A stretch of 63,619 nucleotides of DNA, counting the filler, from Basidiobolus ranarum (taxonomy: Eukaryota): assembly GCA_040143965.1 (NCBI GenBank). It is 10 parts of 10 records of this genome, joined end to end, with 100 filler letters (N's around TTAATTAATTAA, not from the genome) between each part and the next. Parts side by side here need not be neighbours in the genome. Positions count along the whole stretch, not along the records: positions 31,893 to 38,164 come from JASJQH010001358.1; 9 more parts are not named here. The stretch is one strand, 5' to 3'. The notes under the pieces were generated by a model. The model did no database searches and was not told where the DNA came from. It was given only the letters and a program-made list of their open reading frames with translations. How positions within the stretch are numbered: the stretch's first letter is position 1; each line of letters starts with the position of its first letter. The position numbers and the translations under genes were made by a program. Shown here one piece after another: positions 31,893-50,559 of the stretch.

Positions 31893-32879
31893 TAACTCAT
31901 GGCAGCAGGGAGCATCACGCAGCTTGTATACCCATGAGGGCCTTTGCCTGCTCCACCGAGAGCGTGCGCAATCGCAGGCGGTGCTCCCTAATCCACTTCC
32001 TTCATGACAGAAGCCTGTGTAGCTTCCCATACACCAAGCAGACTCTGAAGTCTCGAAGATATATCCTGTCGATTGTGGTTTGTCTGTAGAAGAGATCCTG
32101 TTAGTTTCTTCAGTGCAATGGCTGCTAGATCATCCGATTCAGAATTGGAATTTAATGAAGACAGCGTTTCCACACAGTGGTCTACAGATCGCATCCCTGT
32201 GTAGAGCCACAGCCAATCTGGTGTGTGTAAAGTGATCACGGGATCCAAGATAATGGACTTGGGTACACAAAGTGGATGGCGAAAGATTCTTTTAGCTCCA
32301 ACTCTCGAATCAGTTGCGCCCGAACCACTGTTATACTCTCCTCCAGATAGGGAGGTTGGGATGCAGATTAATTGGATATTTGGGGGCAGAACGGTGTCTA
32401 CTGACTGTTCATCGAAAACTAAAGTATTGAGATCATCAGGTGTATTTACCTCATTTGCCACTGCTAGAAGGGCCACCTTTGCTGCATCCGTAATGGAACC
32501 ACCTCCAAGAGTGATAATCACATCTGCCCTTTTAAACAATGATATTTTTGTAAATCAAAGGTTTGTGGAGGCGTAAGATAAGTACCTACTTTGCGCTTTG
32601 GATTTCTTTGGTTAGTTCAATAATGTCTTCCCATGGAGTATGTGGTCGAATTCCGACTTTCTTTCCAACGAAATATTGACCTAAAGCTTGCTCCAACCGT
32701 ACTACCAGATCAGTATCACTATTGAGCGATTTAGATACAACAAGAAAGGCTCGCTTCGTAGACAGCCGATGGAGTTCGTTGACAACCGCATCGGTGTATG
32801 ATTTTCCCCATATTACACGCTCCACTCTCGTTGAAGATTGAGGCGCCTCACCAGCAGATACGGATACAGTGGTTGTCAT
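31893..32879 (-). pseudogene. Iron-containing alcohol dehydrogenase / maleylacetate-reductase-like gene with an in-frame stop
   Basis: GGGSITDAAK, IPTSLSGGE and DHCVE motifs, intron ~32530-32589. After the TAG at 31988-31990 the frame continues GAPPAIAHALGG..PHGYTSCVMLP. Confidence 0.8.
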
Positions 32880-35800
32880 TTTGTTTAAAAATTCAAGAGT
32901 TTATTTGTTGAATATTTACTGAGAGTTGATGGATTTATACTGGAAGATTACTAAGCTGACGTTGGATCAATCCCTTTCCTCATGATCAGCCTACATGCGT
33001 CACCTATCCCATTCTTTTGAGACCGGTACCCACACTATCCAGTGGTATGATGCTCGAGAATCTGATACAATATCATCACTTTATCTGGCGCTTGGTTTCA
33101 TTTCGCCGAATTATTATTTCCTAATCAAATGTGAGAGTTTGCTGGAATACTTAGGGTTAGGGTATATATGACAAAGTTGATGTGTGAGTGAGGTTGGTTA
33201 TACTATGTATGGAGGTGCGGTATTTACAGTCACGTGAGAATGATTTTGGCGAGGATAATCCTCAATTACATCAGCAACATGCGGGCTTCTTATTGCCTCT
33301 TGGTATGATGGGGGAGGCATGGTGATTGGCGTTTCTATATTAGTCCATGTGGATGGAATGGCTGGGACGGTATTTCCATTAACAGTGGGTAAAGAGTCTT
33401 CTCGTTGCTCTAATAATGGTTTTGGTTAATTCACAGTTGGTTACTCCAGTAATGCATTAAAATTTACCTCGTCTCTTTCTACTGCACACTCGGAACAATG
33501 CACATGCTACAAATATGATACCAAGCACAATATAAATTAAAATGAAGGTCATATTGTGTGCTTTGTGCTCTAACTGCTGCAGAAGAGTTGAATTAAAATG
33601 GGATTAGTTAAGAGATTATGAAAAGTAAGATTTAGTAGAGCCGAAAAAATATAAGGGATGTTGGGAGAACTAGGTTGGGATTTATACGTTTTGGTATGCG
33701 GATCGAGCACCACTCGATTGCCTAATCTAGTCGAGACAGTCATGTAACTCGAATGGGGGTCTTGGCAACCAATTGGGAGAGGAATCAGAGACGATATATT
33801 CGTTTGAGTAAATGCTTTTTCCAAAAGATAGTCTATAGAGAAATATGTGACGTAACATACCAATCTCGTTGTGATCATAACTGTAGCAGTAATCAACTGC
33901 TTTCAATCATCAATTCTAAGAAATACTGGTAGATGTATTCTCCAGAAATATTGACGAGAGATGGGCAATATTTTCCTTTTCTAGGAAGAGAGGGGGTCGC
34001 CCTAAGAGGAGCTTGGGCTGGTACGAGGTAATTTTTTGAAGTAACTTTCAACTTAAAAACCTAATAATTGTTGTTAATATTCACCTTAGCTTCCTTCAAC
34101 ATGTCCATATTCAGCCGCTCAAAACCATAGAATTTCTCTGACTGTAATGCATAAATATTCAATCGAAAGATCGTTGCTTGATGCTTGGTAGCTGACATCA
34201 TCCAATTGTAATGCTCCCCCAGATCACCGAGATGCACTAGCCTTGATTCGGGTTATAAAATCACGATTACTGAACTCACATCCGGAATTCAAGACGAATT
34301 TTCAAGGCCAGGGCATTTGGATGTGAGTGGTATTAGTTTAGCTTTCACTCTGATACACATGTAGCCTAAGAGAGCGCTATGCTAGACAACTTTTATGGTG
34401 CGAAAGAGCATAATAATGATGAATCTTAGATCCTGTAAACCAGAGAAGAGTGGGCCTGGCATGAAGCGAAAGTCATTCTGATAGTATAACTAGAGGTATT
34501 AGGATGATCTGCAAGCTGCGATAATTGGTAGGCTGTATGGATGATATATGTAATAGAGTATCATATTATTCTTTTTCGACTAGCCCACATACCGAGTTTC
34601 TCAGAATGGATGTGTACTGCGGGTTAAGCCTATTATCAGTCTATGTCAGTGTGCAGTGAAGCTGGGTCAGATGTGGGCTAAGAATAAGATTCTGCGGTGA
34701 TTGGATCAGAGAGAGACATGTGGCTTCTTATCACCGCCTCCAGTCTATCTCTTTCAACTTAGTCGATGGCAGACCACATGGAGCATACTTTAATTTACTA
34801 ATAAGAGTTAATCAGGCCCACTATTGGCCATGAACAGTTCAATGGCGGTACTCATATATTATTCATATAGGTTTTGCCGAATTCATGGTAAAACTTCAGC
34901 ACATGTGAATTGTCTTCAGTTAAACAACCTACAAATGTTAAGACTCGCTCAATAGTATACTAGAGTGTACGAAGAGTTGAGTTTATTGCATTCCTTCAAG
35001 CGACTCACTTAAATCATACTCTATTGACATTATTTTTACTTGTAAGTTTACTCTTTGGGCACTGCCTTTGGTATACACAAGTTTTAAACAACTTAAACCT
35101 CGTAAGTTACTTGAGTTACTAGTAGCAGAGAGCATATCTATAAATACGTTCCTAGATATTACCAATCTTTATACTTTGAGTAATCTTTCGACTCATTTTC
35201 CATTGCGACGAATAGTAGGATTGTCTTCTATCTCTTCTTCATTTTCTGCTTTATGTGGAGATGCGAAGCACTTGCCGAATTTGACAAGCGCTTGGCTTGG
35301 GGTAGACGTGATTATTCTTGTATAAACTTCAATACGCCTCCAGCCGAGGCCAAGCTGAAGCTGGGTAGATAGTCCAACTTAAGTGGGAATTAGATCAATT
35401 TGGTATCAGTGGTACTACTGTTACAAATTTCGATTTTGATCTCTTTAATAACTTAGAATACACTACTTTCGATTATTCACCATTAGCCAAATTTTCATAC
35501 AAGATTGCCAAAAATGATTGAGTCAATCTCTCACTTACACCTGGAAAGTCCCCGAAGTCAAACAAGCCGGAGTAAATCCAAACTCTATTATATTCGCGTC
35601 ACTACTTGGTCGCAGTCCAACCCTGACCACCCATCACTCTTTGGTATAGCGGGGCCATTTACTAACTTTATTGAGTTCCTGAACAAGAGAAACGGTTCTC
35701 TTCACTAAGCATTATCCAATCACTAGTTCTGTGTTCACCAACTGATATAACCGAAATAAATGGACATTTTACTCTCCATACTCTGCATTTAATTTCATCA

Positions 35801-36810
35801 AGAATCATTAATTTGGTTTCCTTTCATTGCGATAGAATCAATTGATTGCAATATGAGTAATGTCCGAATCGCCTGTCTGCATAGCAAGTATCGTATATGT
35901 GAATACCACTTGCATGTTGATTCTATCGTCAGATGATGCTGTGGTGCTCCCATTAGCCCATTTCAATGGTAAGTCATTGTAGTTGGATCATGCACTGGTT
36001 TACACCACTAGTAATACAGATTAGAATGGAGTAGATACGTAGTTGATGTAGCACATTACAACAAAGATTTAATCAATCCATTGAGCCTTGGTCCAAATGT
36101 TTGCTTAAAAGATAGATTGACAATTATTGTTGTGCCAGTGACAGTAAATGTAACCAAGGTGGTGTTCGTTGATGGAAACGATCCTGGGGATGCGATGCCA
36201 ACTTTGTAACTGTCGAAAACCAGCTTAGTAGATGAAAAAATGGTCAGAAAGTACTGGTGCACAGCCATCAATGTCTTTTCTTCGTCGTAACAGGCATTAC
36301 TCCCCACACCGCTCTAGATATTGCTAAAGGCTATGGCACGGGAGATGGCCTCAAAATTGAAAGTAATAGCTATTTGACTCAGTACAGAGCTTGGTTGTTA
36401 TCTGTTTGCGTACCACTATACCGGATAAGCAGCACTAAAGTGACCCTGAAAACGTTCTTACGGTGAAAGTATTATGATTTATATGAGGTGAGCTTGCTAC
36501 TTGATCTAGTGAGTAAAAATCAGATGTTGCTAGTAAGGCTGTGGAGTCTTATCGAGTTACAACAAACATTGCCAATACAAAAATGGAGCATTTGGACAAG
36601 CGTAGCCTCGGCCTTCATTTTGAACACTAATGCTGGCTCATATGAGGGAATGAGAGAGAGTCTGGTCTGACTATATACCCACCACACTCTCATGTTAGCA
36701 TTCATTCTCGTGCCTAAGCCACCAATCTTGCACCTTGTCACAAATGAATCTGTCGAATCCACCAAATCCAGCTGAACTAAGCCACTACATAAGCAAACGT
36801 AATAAAACAA

Positions 36811-36842
36811 CTATAAGTGAACAAAAAAATTGTAGACAAATT
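36811..36842 (+). mobile_element. Putative Tc1/mariner-like left end of the Fanzor element
   Basis: TA-TAAGTGAACAAAAAAATTGTAGACAAA resembles Tc1-type TIRs and lies ~115 bp upstream of the Fanzor ATG. The partner end is outside the fragment. Confidence 0.4.
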
Positions 36843-36929
36843 GTGTAATTCATTGCTGTAACTCATCGGTTTTTTTTTAGAGTATATGCTTAACAAACTT
36901 TTCTATCCGTAAACTTTTCTCTTCTCTTT

Positions 36930-38164
36930 ATGGAACCACCTCTAAAGATTATAGCAGTCAAGAGCTCAATCGCTGGTATTGGGCGGAAGCCACAATATGT
37001 TCCACTACTCATGTCACTTATAGCTAATGTTCATACCCTTGTGTCGTATACGTTTCCTTTTTGAAGTACATCTTTACTCATGAACTGGAAGCTGACCCTG
37101 CTTCGTTTGGAGGATTTCATTAATGTTAGCTTTTTTAAAGGTTTTTTTGTCACTCCTCAATAACTACAAGCCAGACAAACAGAAAGCTTCGACAGAATCA
37201 AGAGCCTACAAAGATCTAAACACGCCATTCAACTGCTGTCCGTTAAGAAGGGGCTTCATACCATGCTATATGACAATCGATACATATATTTTGAATACTC
37301 AAATTTTAAAGAATTCTATCACCAGTCACTTGGATAAAGAAGTAGTATGGGGATTCATTATTGACCTCACATCAAAGGCAATGAAACCACAAGGAAAAGG
37401 CAAGTCAATGAAGTTTAGAGGTATGATGTACACAGATGGTGTAGGTGTGTCGGTGTTAAAGCAAAACCACGATACGAAGAAGGGTGGCGGTGGCGCAAAG
37501 TCTCTTGCTTCAGAAGAGGAGGAGTTTAAGTATGTGGAGAAGTTGGGAAGAGAAGAGTTGTTGGCCGGTGTTGGAAAATGTGTGATAATTGATCCTGGAC
37601 GTCGCGATTTGCTGTACTGTATACACGAAGAAAGTACCACTGAAAACAAAATGGTTTATCGATATATAAACCAAAAAGTAATTGAAACAAAATGCAGAAA
37701 ATTCAGGAAGCTCAGAGAGAACTTAAAGATAGACTAGGTCATCACAGCTGAGCTTTCCCTATCACATTTTTAATCTTCGACTGCCAACAAAGACAAGTTT
37801 GCCAAGTATCTTCAAGAAAAAGCCAAAGTCACTCCGGTCATGAGAGCGCATTACTCAAATGAAGACCGCCCTGCAGGAGAAGACCGGCGTACCAGCGGTT
37901 TGTTACCTTTTAGAAGATTGAAGCTCTCAAGTTTCAATAACCAACTACAATCAGACAAACGGTTTGCCAAGATTCTTCGAGAGAAGTTTGGGAAAGATAC
38001 TATAGTAGTACTTGTTAACTGGTCGACTGGAAATGTAAATCAAAGAAGGCTTCCAGCTATACCTCCTTGACGAGTTTAAAACTTCAAGTCTGTGCCCTAC
38101 TTGCCAGAACGATGAACTGGAAAAGTTTAAAAAAGTACAAAATCCTAGACCATACAAAAGAGAA
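36930..38164 (+). pseudogene. Fanzor1 (eukaryotic TnpB/Cas12-related RuvC nuclease), degenerate
   Basis: FRGMMYTDGVGVSVL, RuvC-I IIDPGRRDLLYC, VLVNWS, RuvC-II LLDEFKTSS, zinc finger CPTC and NPRPY. Stops at 37735 and 37771, plus frameshifts. Confidence 0.85.
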
Positions 38165-38264
38165 NNNNNNNNNNNNNNNNNNNNNNNNNNNNNNNNNNNN
38201 NNNNNNNNTTAATTAATTAANNNNNNNNNNNNNNNNNNNNNNNNNNNNNNNNNNNNNNNNNNNN

Positions 38265-38875
38265 AAGACGCGAGTTGAGAGACTCTGACTTTTTGCCTAT
38301 ATCGTGCCATGCAATGTCCTGGCGCATGATTGCGTGTAGATATTTCTCACGGATACGCTTAGTCTGATTCTCAGCCGACAATGTAAAGAAACACATTTGG
38401 CCATACGCGGCAATAAGTATAACGGCACCAATGATAGAGAACTTGATGACGATTTCGCGCAGAGCTGCAACTTGCTCTTTAACCGTATCAGGATTAAATT
38501 CTCCTGTGATGCCGTTGATAACATCACCCATCAATTGGGCAACCAACGGCTGACCCACACCGCATCCAATAGCACAGATGGTACCCAGACTAATAGAGAG
38601 AACATTTTTACAACCATTAGATCTTCTTTAAAGTATGTTTTTGATGGGGGTACTGATACTTACATGATACAGGTGACATCCCAGGAGTCGGCAAAGCGGT
38701 AGAGCTTGAAGTAGCTGACTTTGGGACCTACTTCTTTTGCAACCTTCTTTTTCTTTTTGTTGTCATCAATATCGTCAACGCTAACGTGCAGGTCTTTTTC
38801 GTTATTCACAGAAATGGGAACAAGATTTTCATGATTGTGAGTGGATGAATCCTCGAACGCCTCGTCCTTGGACAT
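38265..38875 (-). CDS. ABCB/MDR1-type P-glycoprotein, 5' part
   Basis: VSYFKLYRFAD, intron, GQPL, AENQTKRIREKYLHAIMRQDIAWHD. Cut by the linker. Confidence 0.9.
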
Positions 38876-39849
38876 GGTTGGTTAGAATGAGTTCCTGATT
38901 TAAGATGAGTACTTGTTGCAAATAGCGTCAAAAATGAGTACAAGGCAAGTACCAAGAAAATGCGGGGTGAAGAGTATTAAGTACTAGGGCTCAAGTAGGG
39001 GAGCGGGAATATATTTAGATTCAAGAAAAGCGAAGGAAAATTAGAACAGAGTAGTCAATTGTGATAAGAAAATGATAAACTGATTGCTTGATTTTATAGT
39101 GATTGCAACACTAAACTCTAACTTCAATAGAACATTCGTGACTTAAAACAGACTTAGCGGACGAGTGACATATATGATTTAAATTTAAGAAATTTACATT
39201 CAGTTGAGAGATCCGCAGTGTATGAACGGATTGTGTAATCACTTTACTTTTGGCACATACTCATCGAAGTATATATGGCTACAATCATTACTATATAAAA
39301 ATGTTTCCAATATGCTCATATTTTGAAAATTAATATTTGTGAAACATCCACATTTTGCATTTCCGCAAGTGCGGTCAAACCGTTATCCCCACTACGCGTG
39401 CGAGAGGTAACCACGAATCTGGTGATGTACATGTAGTCTGTCTAAATCAAGCGATAGGAAATCCATATATAGCTAAAGTAAATTCAATTTTGTTTGACAA
39501 TCAACCGATCACTTGCAGATACAGATATATGTAAATATATATAAATATGTATGTATTAAAATACAACACTTTGCACACTGAAATGCTGTCACATCTCAAA
39601 TATTATTCATGATAGCAGGATGTTCTTGGAGTTATCAATAAAATGGGCTATCTATATATAGTATTGGGCGTTATATACGTGCCCGTGTTTATTGATATTT
39701 AGCCCACCTTTACCGCAATACTCACACAACAACCAAACACAGATACAATGGGTTACTATGCTTGAATAACCACAAAATTCACCTTTAATCGGTACATATC
39801 AAGATTTTTTGGGTCAAGCACATTAATTAAACACTCATATAACTGCATT

Positions 39850-40545
39850 GAAAGTGTTGTCATGAAGTGAACAATTGAACAAAACGGGCTCTTGGCCAAC
39901 AAGAATCATACGAGAGCGAATATTGTTCCATTGAAGATCCTTGATATCTCAGTTGTCAATAGCAGCCTTTCCTTTGATTGTATCGTACCAACACTTCATC
40001 AATGCAACAATCATGGACTTTTCTCATTCAGAAGGCAAGTGAGTAAGCACATAACATGACAAATATGAATGAACTCATACCAGCACCAGTGACGAAGGCT
40101 TTCTTGACAACTGCTTTGCGGGCTTCATTTAGTATATCTCCTATGCGCTTGACCTCATAGAGCGCCACAGATTTCATTAAAGAGAATTTACATAAAAACG
40201 AGTTAGACAGCCATAGTCTAAATGATGCATCCACAAATAGGATTTTGTATTGCTTACACCCCATGACAGAAATAGCAGTCAAGAGAACCAAGACCATCTT
40301 CTAACTGGCCATGAAAGCGATCACGAAGCTGGTGACGAAAGTCAAAAGTAACATCATGCATATGCCAACTTTATTAGATATACCGATAAGTACAACGGTC
40401 CCAATGATAGTGAACTTGATAACGATTTCACGCAAAATAACGACTTGCTCTTTAACCGTATGGGGTTGACTTCTCCTGTGATGCCGTTAATAATATCACC
40501 AATAAATTTGGCTACCAACCACACCGCATGCAATAGTACCAGTTT
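39850..40545 (-). pseudogene. Heavily deleted ABCB paralog
   Basis: Juxtaposed fragments of TM1, DKVGICM..FMAS, AVVKKAFVTG and NBD sequence (VGQEPVLF) with stops and deletions. Confidence 0.8.
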
Positions 40546-41624
40546 AATGGAGAAAATATTTATAAAGCGATTAGATTGTCTTTAACATATGCTATTGATT
40601 CAGATTGAAAAGCTAGCGCATTGCACATTGTCTCATTAATCAAGTAAAAGTCATTGGCAATCTGTGTATATATAAACATGGAAGTATAAATGGATTATCA
40701 AGACCATAGTTAACCCTGAGCGCTGATGGTATTTACCACATTTTTTCTTAACCGAACAATCGGAATCTTGCTAAAAACATATATTCGGATCAAACATGGT
40801 TAATTCATGCAGAAAAAGGGTTGAACAGTAGAGACTAAAATTTTCCATTGAGTACAGATCGGTCTAGAACCTCTACAAAATCCATATGACCATCTTTTCA
40901 AATACACGAAGAGGCATCAAATAACGCTGAATAATGAAGTAAACGCAATAAAGTTAGCATATGGACTAATGGAATATTACCATAGCCTACTAACTTTCTC
41001 AATGAGGACGGCGATTAAAGCCCTAGTCAAGGCAGTGGCTAAAGTCATCAACACTGTATCGTTGACGAAAGTGCCCACGCCATCAATATAAATTAGCGGC
41101 TAAGTTACCACGGTGTTGTCATCGAAGTGGGGATAGCATATTGCTATAAGATATGGGTGTATGAGTTTGTCTTGGTGCAAAATCTATCGTTATACAAGAA
41201 ACTGCTCTATCTTTAATAATACAGTCTTGGCATCATCACAACTTCCTGTTTCTAAAATATAAATCAACACCTCCCCATCAGGCATTTTACGTTTACGATT
41301 ATCTCATATTTTGAAACTGCTCACAAACCCTTCATACGAATTCTGTTGGACAGTGCATTACTATCGCTTACCCAGGAAGCGCCAACTCTAGTGTAGATAA
41401 AAGAGCCTCTTTCACGACATTTTAATATTTAATATGTATTGACCTGTATTTTGGATATAACATCATTGGACCAAGCACCCTGGTAAATAGCTTCTTTGTG
41501 CAACATTGGGCAAAGGCTAGCCAAATATGTGATCGACGTGTGAAAATTCACATACATTTAAATTTGCTTAAATTCATATTAATACTAGTCTTTAAAATAA
41601 AATAGAAATATATTTCGATTAATC

Positions 41625-42514
41625 TTAGAGAACCAAAGACATCTTCCAACCAGCCATGAAGGCAATCACGAAGCCTGTAACGAAAGTTGAAAGCGACATG
41701 ATACACATACCGACTTTATCAGACATGCCATCAAAGATCAATTGAGTGTCAGAGTTGAGACGCGAGTTGAGAGACTCTGACTTTTTGCCTATATCATGCC
41801 ATGCAATGTCCTGGCGCATGCTTGCGTGTAGATATTTCTCACGGATACGCTTAGTCTGATTTTCGGTAGATAATGTAAAAAAGCACATTTGACCATACGC
41901 AGCAATAAGTATAATGGCACCAATGATGGTGAACTTGATGACAATTTCACGCAAAGCAGCGACTTGCTCTTTAACCGTATCGGGGTTGAATTCTCCTTGG
42001 ATGCTGTTAATAACATCACCCATCAATCGTGCAACAAAGGGCTGGCCCACACCGCATGCAATAGCACAGATGGTGCCTAAAGCAATGACTTGTTCTTTAA
42101 CCTTATCGGGGTTGACTTCTCCTGTGAGGCCGTTAATAACATTGCCCATCAATTGGCCAACCAAGGGCTGGCCCACACCGCATGCAATAGCACAGATGGT
42201 GCCCAAACTGATGGAGAGAATATTTGTCAGACGATTAGGCTTTCATTAAGATATGTCATTGATATAGGAAAGGACACTTACATGATACAAGTGGCATCCC
42301 AGGAGTTGGCAAAGCGGTATAGTTTGAAGTAGCTGACTTTGGGGCCTATCTCTTTTGGATCTTTCTTTTTCTTGCCCTTTTTTGTATCTTGCTTTTTATC
42401 GTTATCAATCTCGTCAATACTGAGGCTCAGTGCTTTTTCGTTGTTCACGGAAATGGCAACAATATCCGGGTTGTTATGATTGGACACACCCTCGATAAAC
42501 TCTTCGTTGGACAT
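41625..42514 (-). pseudogene. Truncated ABCB paralog with an internal 126-bp duplication
   Basis: Same first intron as the 38875 gene. The 42-aa block GTICAIACGVGQP..KEQVxAL occurs twice. Ends at GWKMSLVL*. Confidence 0.85.
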
Positions 42515-49705: not shown

Positions 49706-50160
49706 TGTTGAAATTAAAATTGTCGAAGAACAATAGTCACATATAGCTTAGTATTTGGTTTTCCTATATTTGACTATCACCCAATATTCTCATTTGGAAT
49801 TTATTTCGAATATTTCTTCTGACTTGAAGGTTCATAGATGTATAGACTTTTTAAGCTTGTATTTGAAGCCTCAAAACTTGCACACATATCCCTGTGACCC
49901 TCCTTGATGCCCTTTATATGTTACTTTGCTTACATCTTGATAAATATATATGTATGAGCGTTCTACTCAATATATCAATAAGTGAAGAGCATATATTTCT
50001 CTGATTCTCATGCCACTTCCAACAGCCTGTTAAATACTTCAGCAAATTATGAGCCCCAAGTTTGCACTCTTGGTAATGTCAACTTCCTGTTTTTCTACCA
50101 CTTTTCCCTCTTCTCAAAAATTAGAGAGAACCAAATATCAAGTTTATATTTTAAAACCAA
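49706..50160 (+). mobile_element. Copia 5' LTR (49706-50044) plus PBS and gag remnant
   Basis: TGTTGAAA...ACTTCAGCA, then AATTATGAGCCCC (degenerate GGTTATGRGCCC PBS) and an ATGTCAACT.. gag-like start. Confidence 0.75.
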
Positions 50161-50362
50161 GCAGCTGCTGCAAGAAAAAAGACTTTGCAAGATTGTTATA
50201 AGAGAAAAAAAGCAATGATAACTATCCAAAACCAAGTTCCATCAAAGTATTCAAAGCCTCTTTGAAGAGGCTGTTCACTTGTGGATTTATTAAGTTGAAT
50301 ATTAATACTTATACTTTTGAAAGGATGCAAGTAAACTGACATTAAGAATGTGCAAAGCAAGA

Positions 50363-50559
50363 TACCAGGAACATGTGTGCCAAGTTTGGGGCTTGTAGCA
50401 CAAGCTTGAAAAATCTATATATTTGATAATTAAGTTGGCAACAATATTCTGAGTAAATTCCAATTAAGATTAATGGGTAATATCTTAGTGAGGTATCAAT
50501 AGACTAAATACTAGGCTATATTTGACTATATGGATGTTAAAGCAATGCTGATTTCAATA
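50363..50559 (-). mobile_element. Partial copia LTR
   Basis: Aligns to 7000-7167 and ends ATTTCAATA. Confidence 0.75.

Follow-up and report, generated by a model that had tools for sequence, protein, structure and literature searches.

A Fanzor1 pseudogene in a TA-duplicating element of Basidiobolus ranarum and the predicted intron-split omegaRNA of its family

We analyzed a 63,619-nucleotide stretch of Basidiobolus ranarum DNA (GenBank assembly GCA_040143965.1, G000 in our labels), referred to below as the window, in which separate contigs are chained by an artificial N-linker that recurs every ~6.36 kb. At the 3' end of contig G000:C1358 (window 31893-38164) lies the relic of a gene for Fanzor1, a eukaryotic RNA-guided nuclease. 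The feature is a Fanzor1 pseudogene in a TA-duplicating terminal inverted repeat (TIR) element whose superfamily is unproven. Taken alone the relic is ordinary; its interest lies in the family it belongs to, for which repeated transfer between fungal phyla is probable and whose right-end layout predicts an omegaRNA split by an intron.

The Fanzor1 pseudogene and its contig

The pseudogene occupies positions 36930..38164 on the plus strand, as do all window features below unless stated otherwise, and is ended by the contig end. It covers the WED/REC start, RuvC-I, RuvC-II and the first zinc-finger pair. The initial annotation had placed its start at ATG 36930 with MEPPLKIIAVKSSI, where we also found it, and PLRRGF (37240), TDGVGVSV (37432), DPGRRD (37591), NWS (38017), DEFKTS (38069) and CPTC (38093) were likewise confirmed. 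The TDG motif (37432..37440) is described as a feature of the Fanzor1 WED domain (PMC10711439, section 28). The DPG motif (37591..37599) provides the RuvC-I aspartate, assigned by sequence and by the match to the Protein Data Bank (PDB); this residue was present in all 23 motif matches in the loci fetched for comparison (L numbers). The RuvC-II glutamate at 38072 stands six residues ahead of the CPTC zinc-finger pair at 38093 (feature 38069..38104), and PMC13565253 gives exactly this spacing, together with the DPG aspartate, as marks of Fanzor proteins. The RuvC-III aspartate (NRD) lies past the contig end in the window copy and was seen in 33/38 motif matches in the fetched loci, including the metagenome element L099.

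The open piece 37147-37734 had only two matches in the PDB, PpFz1 of Parasitella parasitica (9CF0, E=4.8e-43) and SpuFz1 of Spizellomyces punctatus (8GKH, E=8.3e-16), while a second window piece matched PpFz1 with E=3e-8, the ~100-residue FRI insertion being missing. These matches support the Fanzor1 call of the initial annotation. A profile built from 16 relatives matches all three solved Fanzor1 proteins, and of 55 longer database relatives, a JGI protein and proteins of Rhizopus come closest, with identities of up to 75%. A Pfam search of the window pieces returned nothing over the cut-off, the only match being a Cas12f1-like TNB domain at E=0.014. By its sequence, the window gene belongs to the PpFz1 type of Fanzor1 but has no FRI insertion. 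In one locus of a third, distant subfamily of the same genome (L051:1070-1525, minus strand), a ~110-residue insertion sits where PpFz1 has its FRI domain, with no sequence match between the two; PMC11423790 reports the FRI domain from Parasitella and Rhizopus only.

Lesions of the window copy were mapped against the siblings L002 and L003 and the metagenome element L099. Both premature stops that had been called, TAG at 37735 and TAA at 37771 (37735..37773), were borne out. The frameshifts noted near 37060-37140 and 38040 are real, their positions being refined to three deletions within 37053..37141 (-1 near 37053, -2 near 37100 and -2 near 37140) and a 43-44-bp frameshifting deletion past NWS (38031..38040), which probably affects the RuvC lid region. 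The internal deletions suspected earlier comprise the latter and a ~490-bp deletion at 37218 (junction 37213..37219), by which ~163 codons of the REC region are gone. As a result of these frameshifts, deletions and stops, the window copy is unable to encode a nuclease and is a dead Fanzor1.

Both ends of the copy are cut off. On the 3' side the contig breaks at 38164 and is followed by the artificial linker (38165..38264, strandless). RuvC-III and the omegaRNA had been placed beyond this linker; since the DNA past it belongs to a different contig, bearing an ABC transporter piece, nothing 3' of 38164 can be read for the window copy, and its intron, RuvC-III, omegaRNA and right TIR are unassembled and known from siblings alone. 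On the 5' side, a spacer common to siblings (36840..36929) separates the ATG from a remnant of the inner end of a long left TIR (36813..36839, by homology to L063 and L104). Upstream of it, an element-associated segment common to many siblings (36652..36812) stands in for the outer left TIR. Position 36813 had been taken as the left terminus, with alignment of copy boundaries at this point named beforehand as the test. Sibling boundaries do not align near 36813; homology runs further upstream, to 36672 or 36652, and we rejected 36813 as an element end, because what it matches is the long TIR's inner end. A duplicated host segment (35665..36651) joins the truncated element directly at 36651/36652; it is 87% identical to G000:C7140, where its counterpart is the 3' end of a CBS-domain gene and the DNA downstream. 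The true terminal motif of the family occurs nowhere in contig G000:C1358, even allowing 6 mismatches, and no TIR was found anywhere in this contig. The window copy keeps only the inner TIR remnant and has no TA duplication.

The sibling family, its ends and its origin

A DNA search of the same genome (40/103 candidates scored) gave at least 80 matches, mostly at 76-89% identity, in line with the proposal that the dead copy marks a multi-copy Fanzor family in this fungus. Intact siblings had been hoped for; among the matches listed by a protein search (at least 88, with 74/229 candidates scored) there was none. Past the point corresponding to 38164, siblings continue with a coding intron of 50-59 nt, the RLWNRD motif and then ~300 nt up to a shared end. 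The sibling terminus, given as the reverse complement of the common right end, is TA followed by CAGTGTTTTAATCTAAAATGA, and the terminal motif has 110 genome matches at up to 2 mismatches compared with 0 for the control. TA stands ahead of 90/93 ends, a biased figure because most ends were found with a pattern containing TA; with a TA-free search pattern, 20/22 left ends carry it. TIRs and TA are present at both ends of the complete elements L051 (2,653 bp), L130 (611 bp) and L099 (2,856 bp), while L111 shows TA at one side only. The TIRs measure 133 bp in L099, ~113 bp in L051 and 110-135 bp family-wide. The family is thus a TA-flanked TIR element, and the genome-wide sibling search suggested in the initial annotation has yielded both right ends and TA duplications.

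Three subfamilies exist in G000, namely that of the window (ends ~89% alike), a younger one and the distant one (L044, L050, L051). In case of the window's main family, copies agree with the column majority at 0.924 and 0.928 of sites (codon positions 1 and 2) and at 0.907 of fourfold sites. This divergence of 7-9%, about equal at all codon positions, indicates neutral decay. The younger subfamily has ends that are 95.5-95.8% alike and coding overlaps at 97-99.6%; its best pieces are stop-free over 125-245 codons and many are broken at contig ends. An intact copy may hide here, given that near-identical, stop-free pieces break at contig ends.

Several young left arms (L059-L061, L065-L067, L071, L078) are made up of a TIR of their own plus ~45 bp copied from the Fanzor start, continued by a window-type 5' segment, an inner TIR remnant and a second ATG. 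Compared with window 36672-37100, the first ~430 bp are 79-83% identical and the remainder 71-73%, a mosaic which suggests recombination between subfamilies within the host. Upstream (~520 bp) of the part of L019 and L025 that matches window 36672 is a decayed, coding-like stretch present in several copies, probably a captured host gene end; L025 carries an additional 390-bp insertion of which the window copy retains only the last 20 bp. Nearly every family copy has internal deletions of its own. Short, internally deleted elements (L130:242-852, L064, L073) retain the omegaRNA region and the right TIR and may be compared with the 'ghost' loci of Spu-1. A further 27 unclassified TIR ends (e.g. 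L089, L095, L097, L119, L121) are mostly solo remnants of 25-100 bp followed by unrelated host DNA. Relatives in viral contigs were found neither by protein nor by TIR.

Host genes and elements differ in their affinities. On another window contig, a phosphorylase-kinase-like gene shows 86% identity with Basidiobolus meristosporus and 65% with Rhizopus, and the ornithine oxygenase and GNAT acetyltransferase genes of the window fit Basidiobolus, a siderophore-rich genus (PMC7466969). Next to one TIR remnant of the family lies a Sec31 gene whose identity is 41-44% with three Mucorales orthologues, as against 44-49% with Glomeromycota and Mortierellaceae (10/150 matches looked up), which argues against a Mucorales contaminant. 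For the element, the best siblings are 81-83% identical in DNA to Rhizopus-type elements across 1.0-2.2 kb. The reference for these, L099:1723-4578 (contig Ga0164308_10011698), is a complete element adjoining a tyrosine-recombinase frame; it is 99.6% identical to an R. arrhizus protein. Between L099 and the G000 majority, agreement is 90% for codon positions one and two, 72.5% over 207 fourfold sites (27% by chance) and 88% over 58 intron sites. An additional base in a T run near codon 70 shifts the L099 frame, which explains why database proteins of the family begin at an internal methionine.

The window family has the same placement in a quick tree of 47 rows and in a careful LG+G4 tree of 25 of those rows, namely as sister to the R. 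arrhizus/delemar Fanzors (SH-aLRT 86 in the quick tree; 96/94 in the LG+G4 tree). The young subfamily falls near R. microsporus (83; 88/83) and the third is placed elsewhere. Approximately unbiased (AU) tests reject a single G000 clade (p=0.0006), G000 joined with Syncephalis (4e-5) and the named Mucorales excluding G000 (4e-51), with the caveat that the first tree was already at hand when these groups were defined and that long branches are present. The Rhizopus arrhizus/delemar Fanzor1 proteins (e.g. KAG0753763, annotated as hypothetical protein or transposase; L099) thus represent a sister group with which the window family shares the coding intron, TIR and right-end layout, whereas they come from another phylum and have another 5' spacer, and the G000 copies are decayed with mosaic 5' arms. 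From these comparisons, a transfer from Rhizopus-like Mucorales into Basidiobolus is very probable, and it probably happened two or three times. The two phyla separated over 600 million years ago. Transfer of Tc1/mariner elements is described as frequent in fungi and rare between major groups (bioRxiv 10.1101/2025.06.16.659975), and PMC10432273 calls transfer of Fanzor elements between fungal phyla only generally likely; the present family offers a concrete case in which repeated transfer is probable. Fanzor1 in Rhizopus, in Mucor and in mariner-type elements was already known (PMC3627910). The name 'Basidiobolus' did not occur in the searched supplements of PMC10432273 and PMC10711439 (one PMC10432273 PDF was unreadable); its absence from the PMC10530073 supplements is uninformative because 'Rhizopus' is absent there too.

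Two other accounts were weighed. Vertical inheritance of a Rhizopus-like Fanzor ancestral to both phyla, or Mucorales contamination as the source of the Fanzor contigs, would be aided by the thin Fanzor sampling of Zoopagomycota (one Syncephalis protein among 55 matches), by the fragmentation of the assembly into 13,754 contigs and by the fact that the host gene with 86% identity to B. meristosporus sits on a different contig from the relic; the Rhizopus assignment of L099, a metagenome contig, by protein identity alone also weighs against our reading. We nevertheless regard either scenario as improbable, because the fourfold, intron and TIR identity is unsaturated, the three G000 lineages nest apart among Mucorales with the alternatives rejected by the AU tests, copies 76-89% identical to the window copy occur on dozens of contigs with differing neighbours, and the Sec31 gene by the TIR remnant is no nearer to Mucorales than to Glomeromycota or Mortierellaceae. 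The second account concerns the superfamily. As stated in the initial annotation, no transposase lies between the TIR-like sequence and the ATG, and the family as a whole is carried by a transposase-less TIR element. Its description as Tc1/mariner-ended agrees with the TA duplication and TIR shape of the siblings, from which the label now derives, since no partner transposase was found: none of 10 DDE_3 and 2 DDE_1 matches carries the family TIRs within 1.5-kb flanks of this fragmented assembly, and none of the 27 unclassified TIR ends was seen to belong to a Fanzor-less element with a transposase (frames judged by eye). This negative result counts against our assignment and would fit a different DDE superfamily with a TA-like target duplication, as would the report of Mucorales Fanzor1 in MuDR-like and unclassified elements (PMC3627910). 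However, the same source gives as the Tc1/mariner hallmark a TA duplication of 2 bp, outside which the bases are unrelated, along with termini that begin with CAG, and another superfamily seems quite unlikely to us. The mariner-type elements PGv-1, PUl-1 and PUl-4 described there resemble the family in TA duplication, TIRs and Fanzor-only members, but their TIRs match confirmed mariners.

Among candidate partners, two intact Tc1-like frames of 336-339 aa (L140 and L144; G000:C1558 and C280) were rejected, as they have no TIR and their catalytic residues are apparently missing (by eye); they are probably domesticated transposases. A pogo-like locus was also dismissed, having no family TIR. At L149:288-2223, an element with 347-bp inverted repeats (87%) flanks a decayed DDE_3 frame and is unrelated to the Fanzor TIR.

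Right-end layout and a putative intron-split omegaRNA

No omegaRNA could be found in the window (one match elsewhere at E=0.16), and Rfam gave no match for the omegaRNA region; the following applies to siblings. A hairpin, SL1, is located at the sibling stop codon and has the loop TTATCG, as in the omegaRNAs of PpFz1 and SpuFz1. Across 29 aligned rows, one of which (L054) is misaligned, 89% of cells are paired and 3/7 pairs show two-sided changes. In the 33 rows that have a TIR, 75-184 nt separate the end of the motif after SL1 from the right element end, unlike in SpuFz1. Just 5' of a GTAAG sequence stands TACAG, which can pair with the final three element bases together with the duplicated TA. 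This closing stem covaries, reading TACAG/CTGTA in the main and young subfamilies, TATAG/CTATA in L099 and TACAGG/CCTGTA in L044 and L051. SpuFz1 omegaRNAs likewise close their second stem on the element end and TA, as judged by eye from supplement rows of PMC10432273, and the 3' duplication belongs to the scaffold in structures reported in PMC13565253. Because TACAG pairs with the element end and TA, host DNA to the right of the element would be the guide, which we consider likely.

GTAAG is a canonical 5' splice site. All three G000 subfamilies, L099 and both Parasitella omegaRNAs have it after the 5' stem arm, with diverging bases downstream; within G000, the sequence after GTAAGTCTTTGAACA varies between subfamilies. 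Towards the right end, a CTAAT branch motif lies mostly ~30 nt ahead of a TTTTAG acceptor, which is 12 nt from the element end. The putative intron measures 68-177 nt, and exon 1 is 40-41 nt long in 9/10 cases, with a spacer of 76-177 nt. Of 55 rows initially collected, 8 left-end false matches were dropped, and the remaining 47 right-end rows show GT in 43, GC in 4, YAG in 46 and the branch CTRAY in 38 (L079, at 274 nt, has a spurious donor). For 10 modelled ends, the spliced scaffold would be 54-55 nt (46 in L044) and the unspliced one 131-231 nt. Closing stem probabilities were 0.84-0.98 for 9/10 spliced models; unspliced, they were 0.00-0.03 for the main family (4/4 models), 0.24 for L051 and 0.46 for L099. 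A donor-retention count of 36/58 was spoiled by false SL1 matches and not used, and the idea of a short Parasitella intron, prompted by CTAAT in the RNAs given for these elements, was abandoned, the sequence there being similar to the inner end of the L044 TIR.

Flanking sequences provide a further line of evidence. T at position -5 occurs in 18/23 left flanks and 21/57 right flanks (p=0.001; background T 29%), A at -3 in 14/23 and 15/57 (p=0.005), and G at -3 in 0/23 and 12/57. Although chosen post hoc, this one-sided bias fits a target-adjacent motif (TAM) near T-N-A/T-T-A, and the ATN reported as TAM of PpFz1 (PMC11423790), better than a symmetric transposase preference. It would constitute indirect evidence of Fanzor homing in a eukaryote.

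Our overall explanation, which we favour with some reservation, is that the relic in the window is a dead, 5'-truncated copy, no longer mobile, of a non-autonomous element of the cut-and-paste kind, with Fanzor1 as its only gene, that was horizontally acquired and has an intron-split omegaRNA. The family would have entered a Basidiobolus-like genome from a Rhizopus-like Mucorales fungus and undergone a burst of spread followed by neutral decay, with a transposase supplied in trans moving the element between TA sites. A transcript through the gene and the right end would yield the omegaRNA, with SL1 at the stop codon followed by the second stem, formed by TACAG with the last bases of the element and the duplicated TA, and with the right host flank as guide. 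The 70-180 nt of transposase-binding repeats between the stem arms would most likely be removed as a spliceosomal intron. Fanzor1 would next cleave alleles that lack the element and have a TAM near T-N-A/T-T-A beside the guide match, and repair would copy the element back, a homing step suggested by PMC13565253 and the one-sided flank bias.

Several observations weigh against parts of this explanation. The covariation of SL1 is modest, its score being matched by 31/500 shuffles, and single-sequence folds were mostly no better than shuffles. Donor and acceptor counts are partly circular because the search required a donor and the TIR motif. The branch site and acceptor lie within TIR repeats which the transposase constrains anyway. 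The stem also forms without splicing in the young subfamily (0.96-0.98, 3/3 models) and in L044 (0.96), and because the unspliced long-range stem reaches 8 bp in the young subfamily and L099, pairing partly accounts for the donor GT. A search for an intron-less genomic copy gave 6 matches at 2 mismatches compared with 3 for the control, none of them Fanzor. In case of the flank bias, the motif was chosen after the data had been seen, and the contrast between left and right flanks in the young subfamily alone (15/20 vs 6/13, p=0.14) is not significant. Finally, the target oligo used for PpFz1 cryo-EM consists of the TAM ATA and the sequence right after GTAAGC (PMC11423790), from which it follows that the RNA made in yeast was unspliced and that an internal stretch acted as guide; this stretch is element DNA, not flank, since it is common to two Parasitella loci. 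Whether or not the omegaRNA is spliced via a spliceosomal intron is, judging by these signals, evenly balanced.

An unspliced, long omegaRNA could account for much of the right end: its stem would close on the element end and TA, the flank would be the guide, the 70-180 nt of TIR interior would be kept as a loop, and GTAAG would resemble a donor by coincidence only. The stem probabilities of the young subfamily, L044 and L099 speak for it, as do the 8-bp stem around an internal segment in SpuFz1 and the 229-nt RNA given for a Batrachochytrium Fanzor1 (both PMC10432273). We find it unlikely all the same, as the stem does not form in any of the 4 unspliced main-family models, pairing does not explain why six lineages retain the AAG of GTAAG, and yeast ribonucleoproteins of two Parasitella Fanzor1 proteins gave short RNAs ending within the element (PMC10432273). 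In the other alternative, the omegaRNA ends inside the element, as observed with PpFz1 made in yeast, and a fixed, subfamily-specific guide aims at a competing element, at a relative lacking Fanzor or at a site in the host. The element-encoded PpFz1 target and the difference between G000 subfamilies in the sequence after GTAAGTCTTTGAACA are as it would predict. In the main family, however, scaffold-free targets were not above chance (3 of 30 matches vs 7 for the control), and in the young family, with 13 matches vs 3 for the control, the sole one outside an element (L189) is partial and has no ATN TAM. A fixed guide would also leave the TACAG/element-end covariation and the left-flank bias unexplained, and the 2023 report gives both Parasitella proteins without a TAM (PMC10432273). 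We therefore consider it rather unlikely. Budding yeast splices foreign fungal introns poorly.

Putting the intron-split explanation in its most specific form, we tentatively propose, with slightly less than even confidence in all parts jointly, that in the PpFz1/Rhizopus/Basidiobolus clade a spliceosomal intron holding the long TIR splits the omegaRNA gene, such that a 40-nt exon would be joined to the last 12 nt of the transposon, TA and the flank guide (54-55-nt scaffold). Splicing would switch between a fixed internal and a locus-specific guide, the PpFz1 structures would represent the unspliced yeast form, and the family would have passed from Mucorales to Basidiobolus more than once. If true, this would explain how a Fanzor in a long-TIR element still draws its guide from the flank, would link an RNA-guided nuclease to the spliceosome and would lead to a new reading of the native RNA of the solved PpFz1 structure. 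It would also predict a very short natural scaffold which may outperform the current one in editing. No paper describing a spliced Fanzor omegaRNA was found by title or abstract opening, most subscription journals being outside reach.

PpFz1 (PDB 9CF0-9CF3; PMC11423790) is the closest solved structure to the window protein; it shares an omegaRNA with SL1 loop TTATCG and AG-GTAAG, and the ATA-rich left flank of the family matches its ATN. It differs in having the ~100-aa FRI insertion and a long N-terminal extension, both missing from the window family, whose window copy is dead, and its published guide is internal and unspliced in yeast, whereas we propose a flank guide after splicing. SpuFz1/Spu-1 of S. 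punctatus (PMC10432273) is likewise a non-autonomous Fanzor1 element bounded by inverted repeats, with partial and Fanzor-less copies, and has SL1, a short linker and a stem closing on the element end and TA; its repeats are 30 nt and its omegaRNA is a contiguous 88-90 nt, compared with TIRs of 110-135 bp and splice signals between the stem arms here. In IStrons (PMC10690162, PMC13565253), one transposon end is similarly used for splicing and guide-RNA production, but there the intron is a bacterial group I intron whose self-splicing takes out the entire element, whereas the spliceosomal intron proposed here lies inside a guide RNA and would assist in its production.

Other features of the window

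The contig following the relic holds, at 38266-42500, several tandem fragments, 83-90% identical, that derive from the N-terminal portion of an ABC transporter gene. A dispersed ~300-bp repeat is found on three contigs (2715-3024, 6848-7156, 49865-50009 and 50274-50394) at 74-90% identity. The ornithine/lysine N-oxygenase and GNAT acetyltransferase genes lie side by side at 58374-60705 and form a hydroxamate siderophore pair. At 62922-63590, an open frame contains a tandem repeat of 20-21 residues (RGFGRQYEDEE-type; 60-63-bp period).

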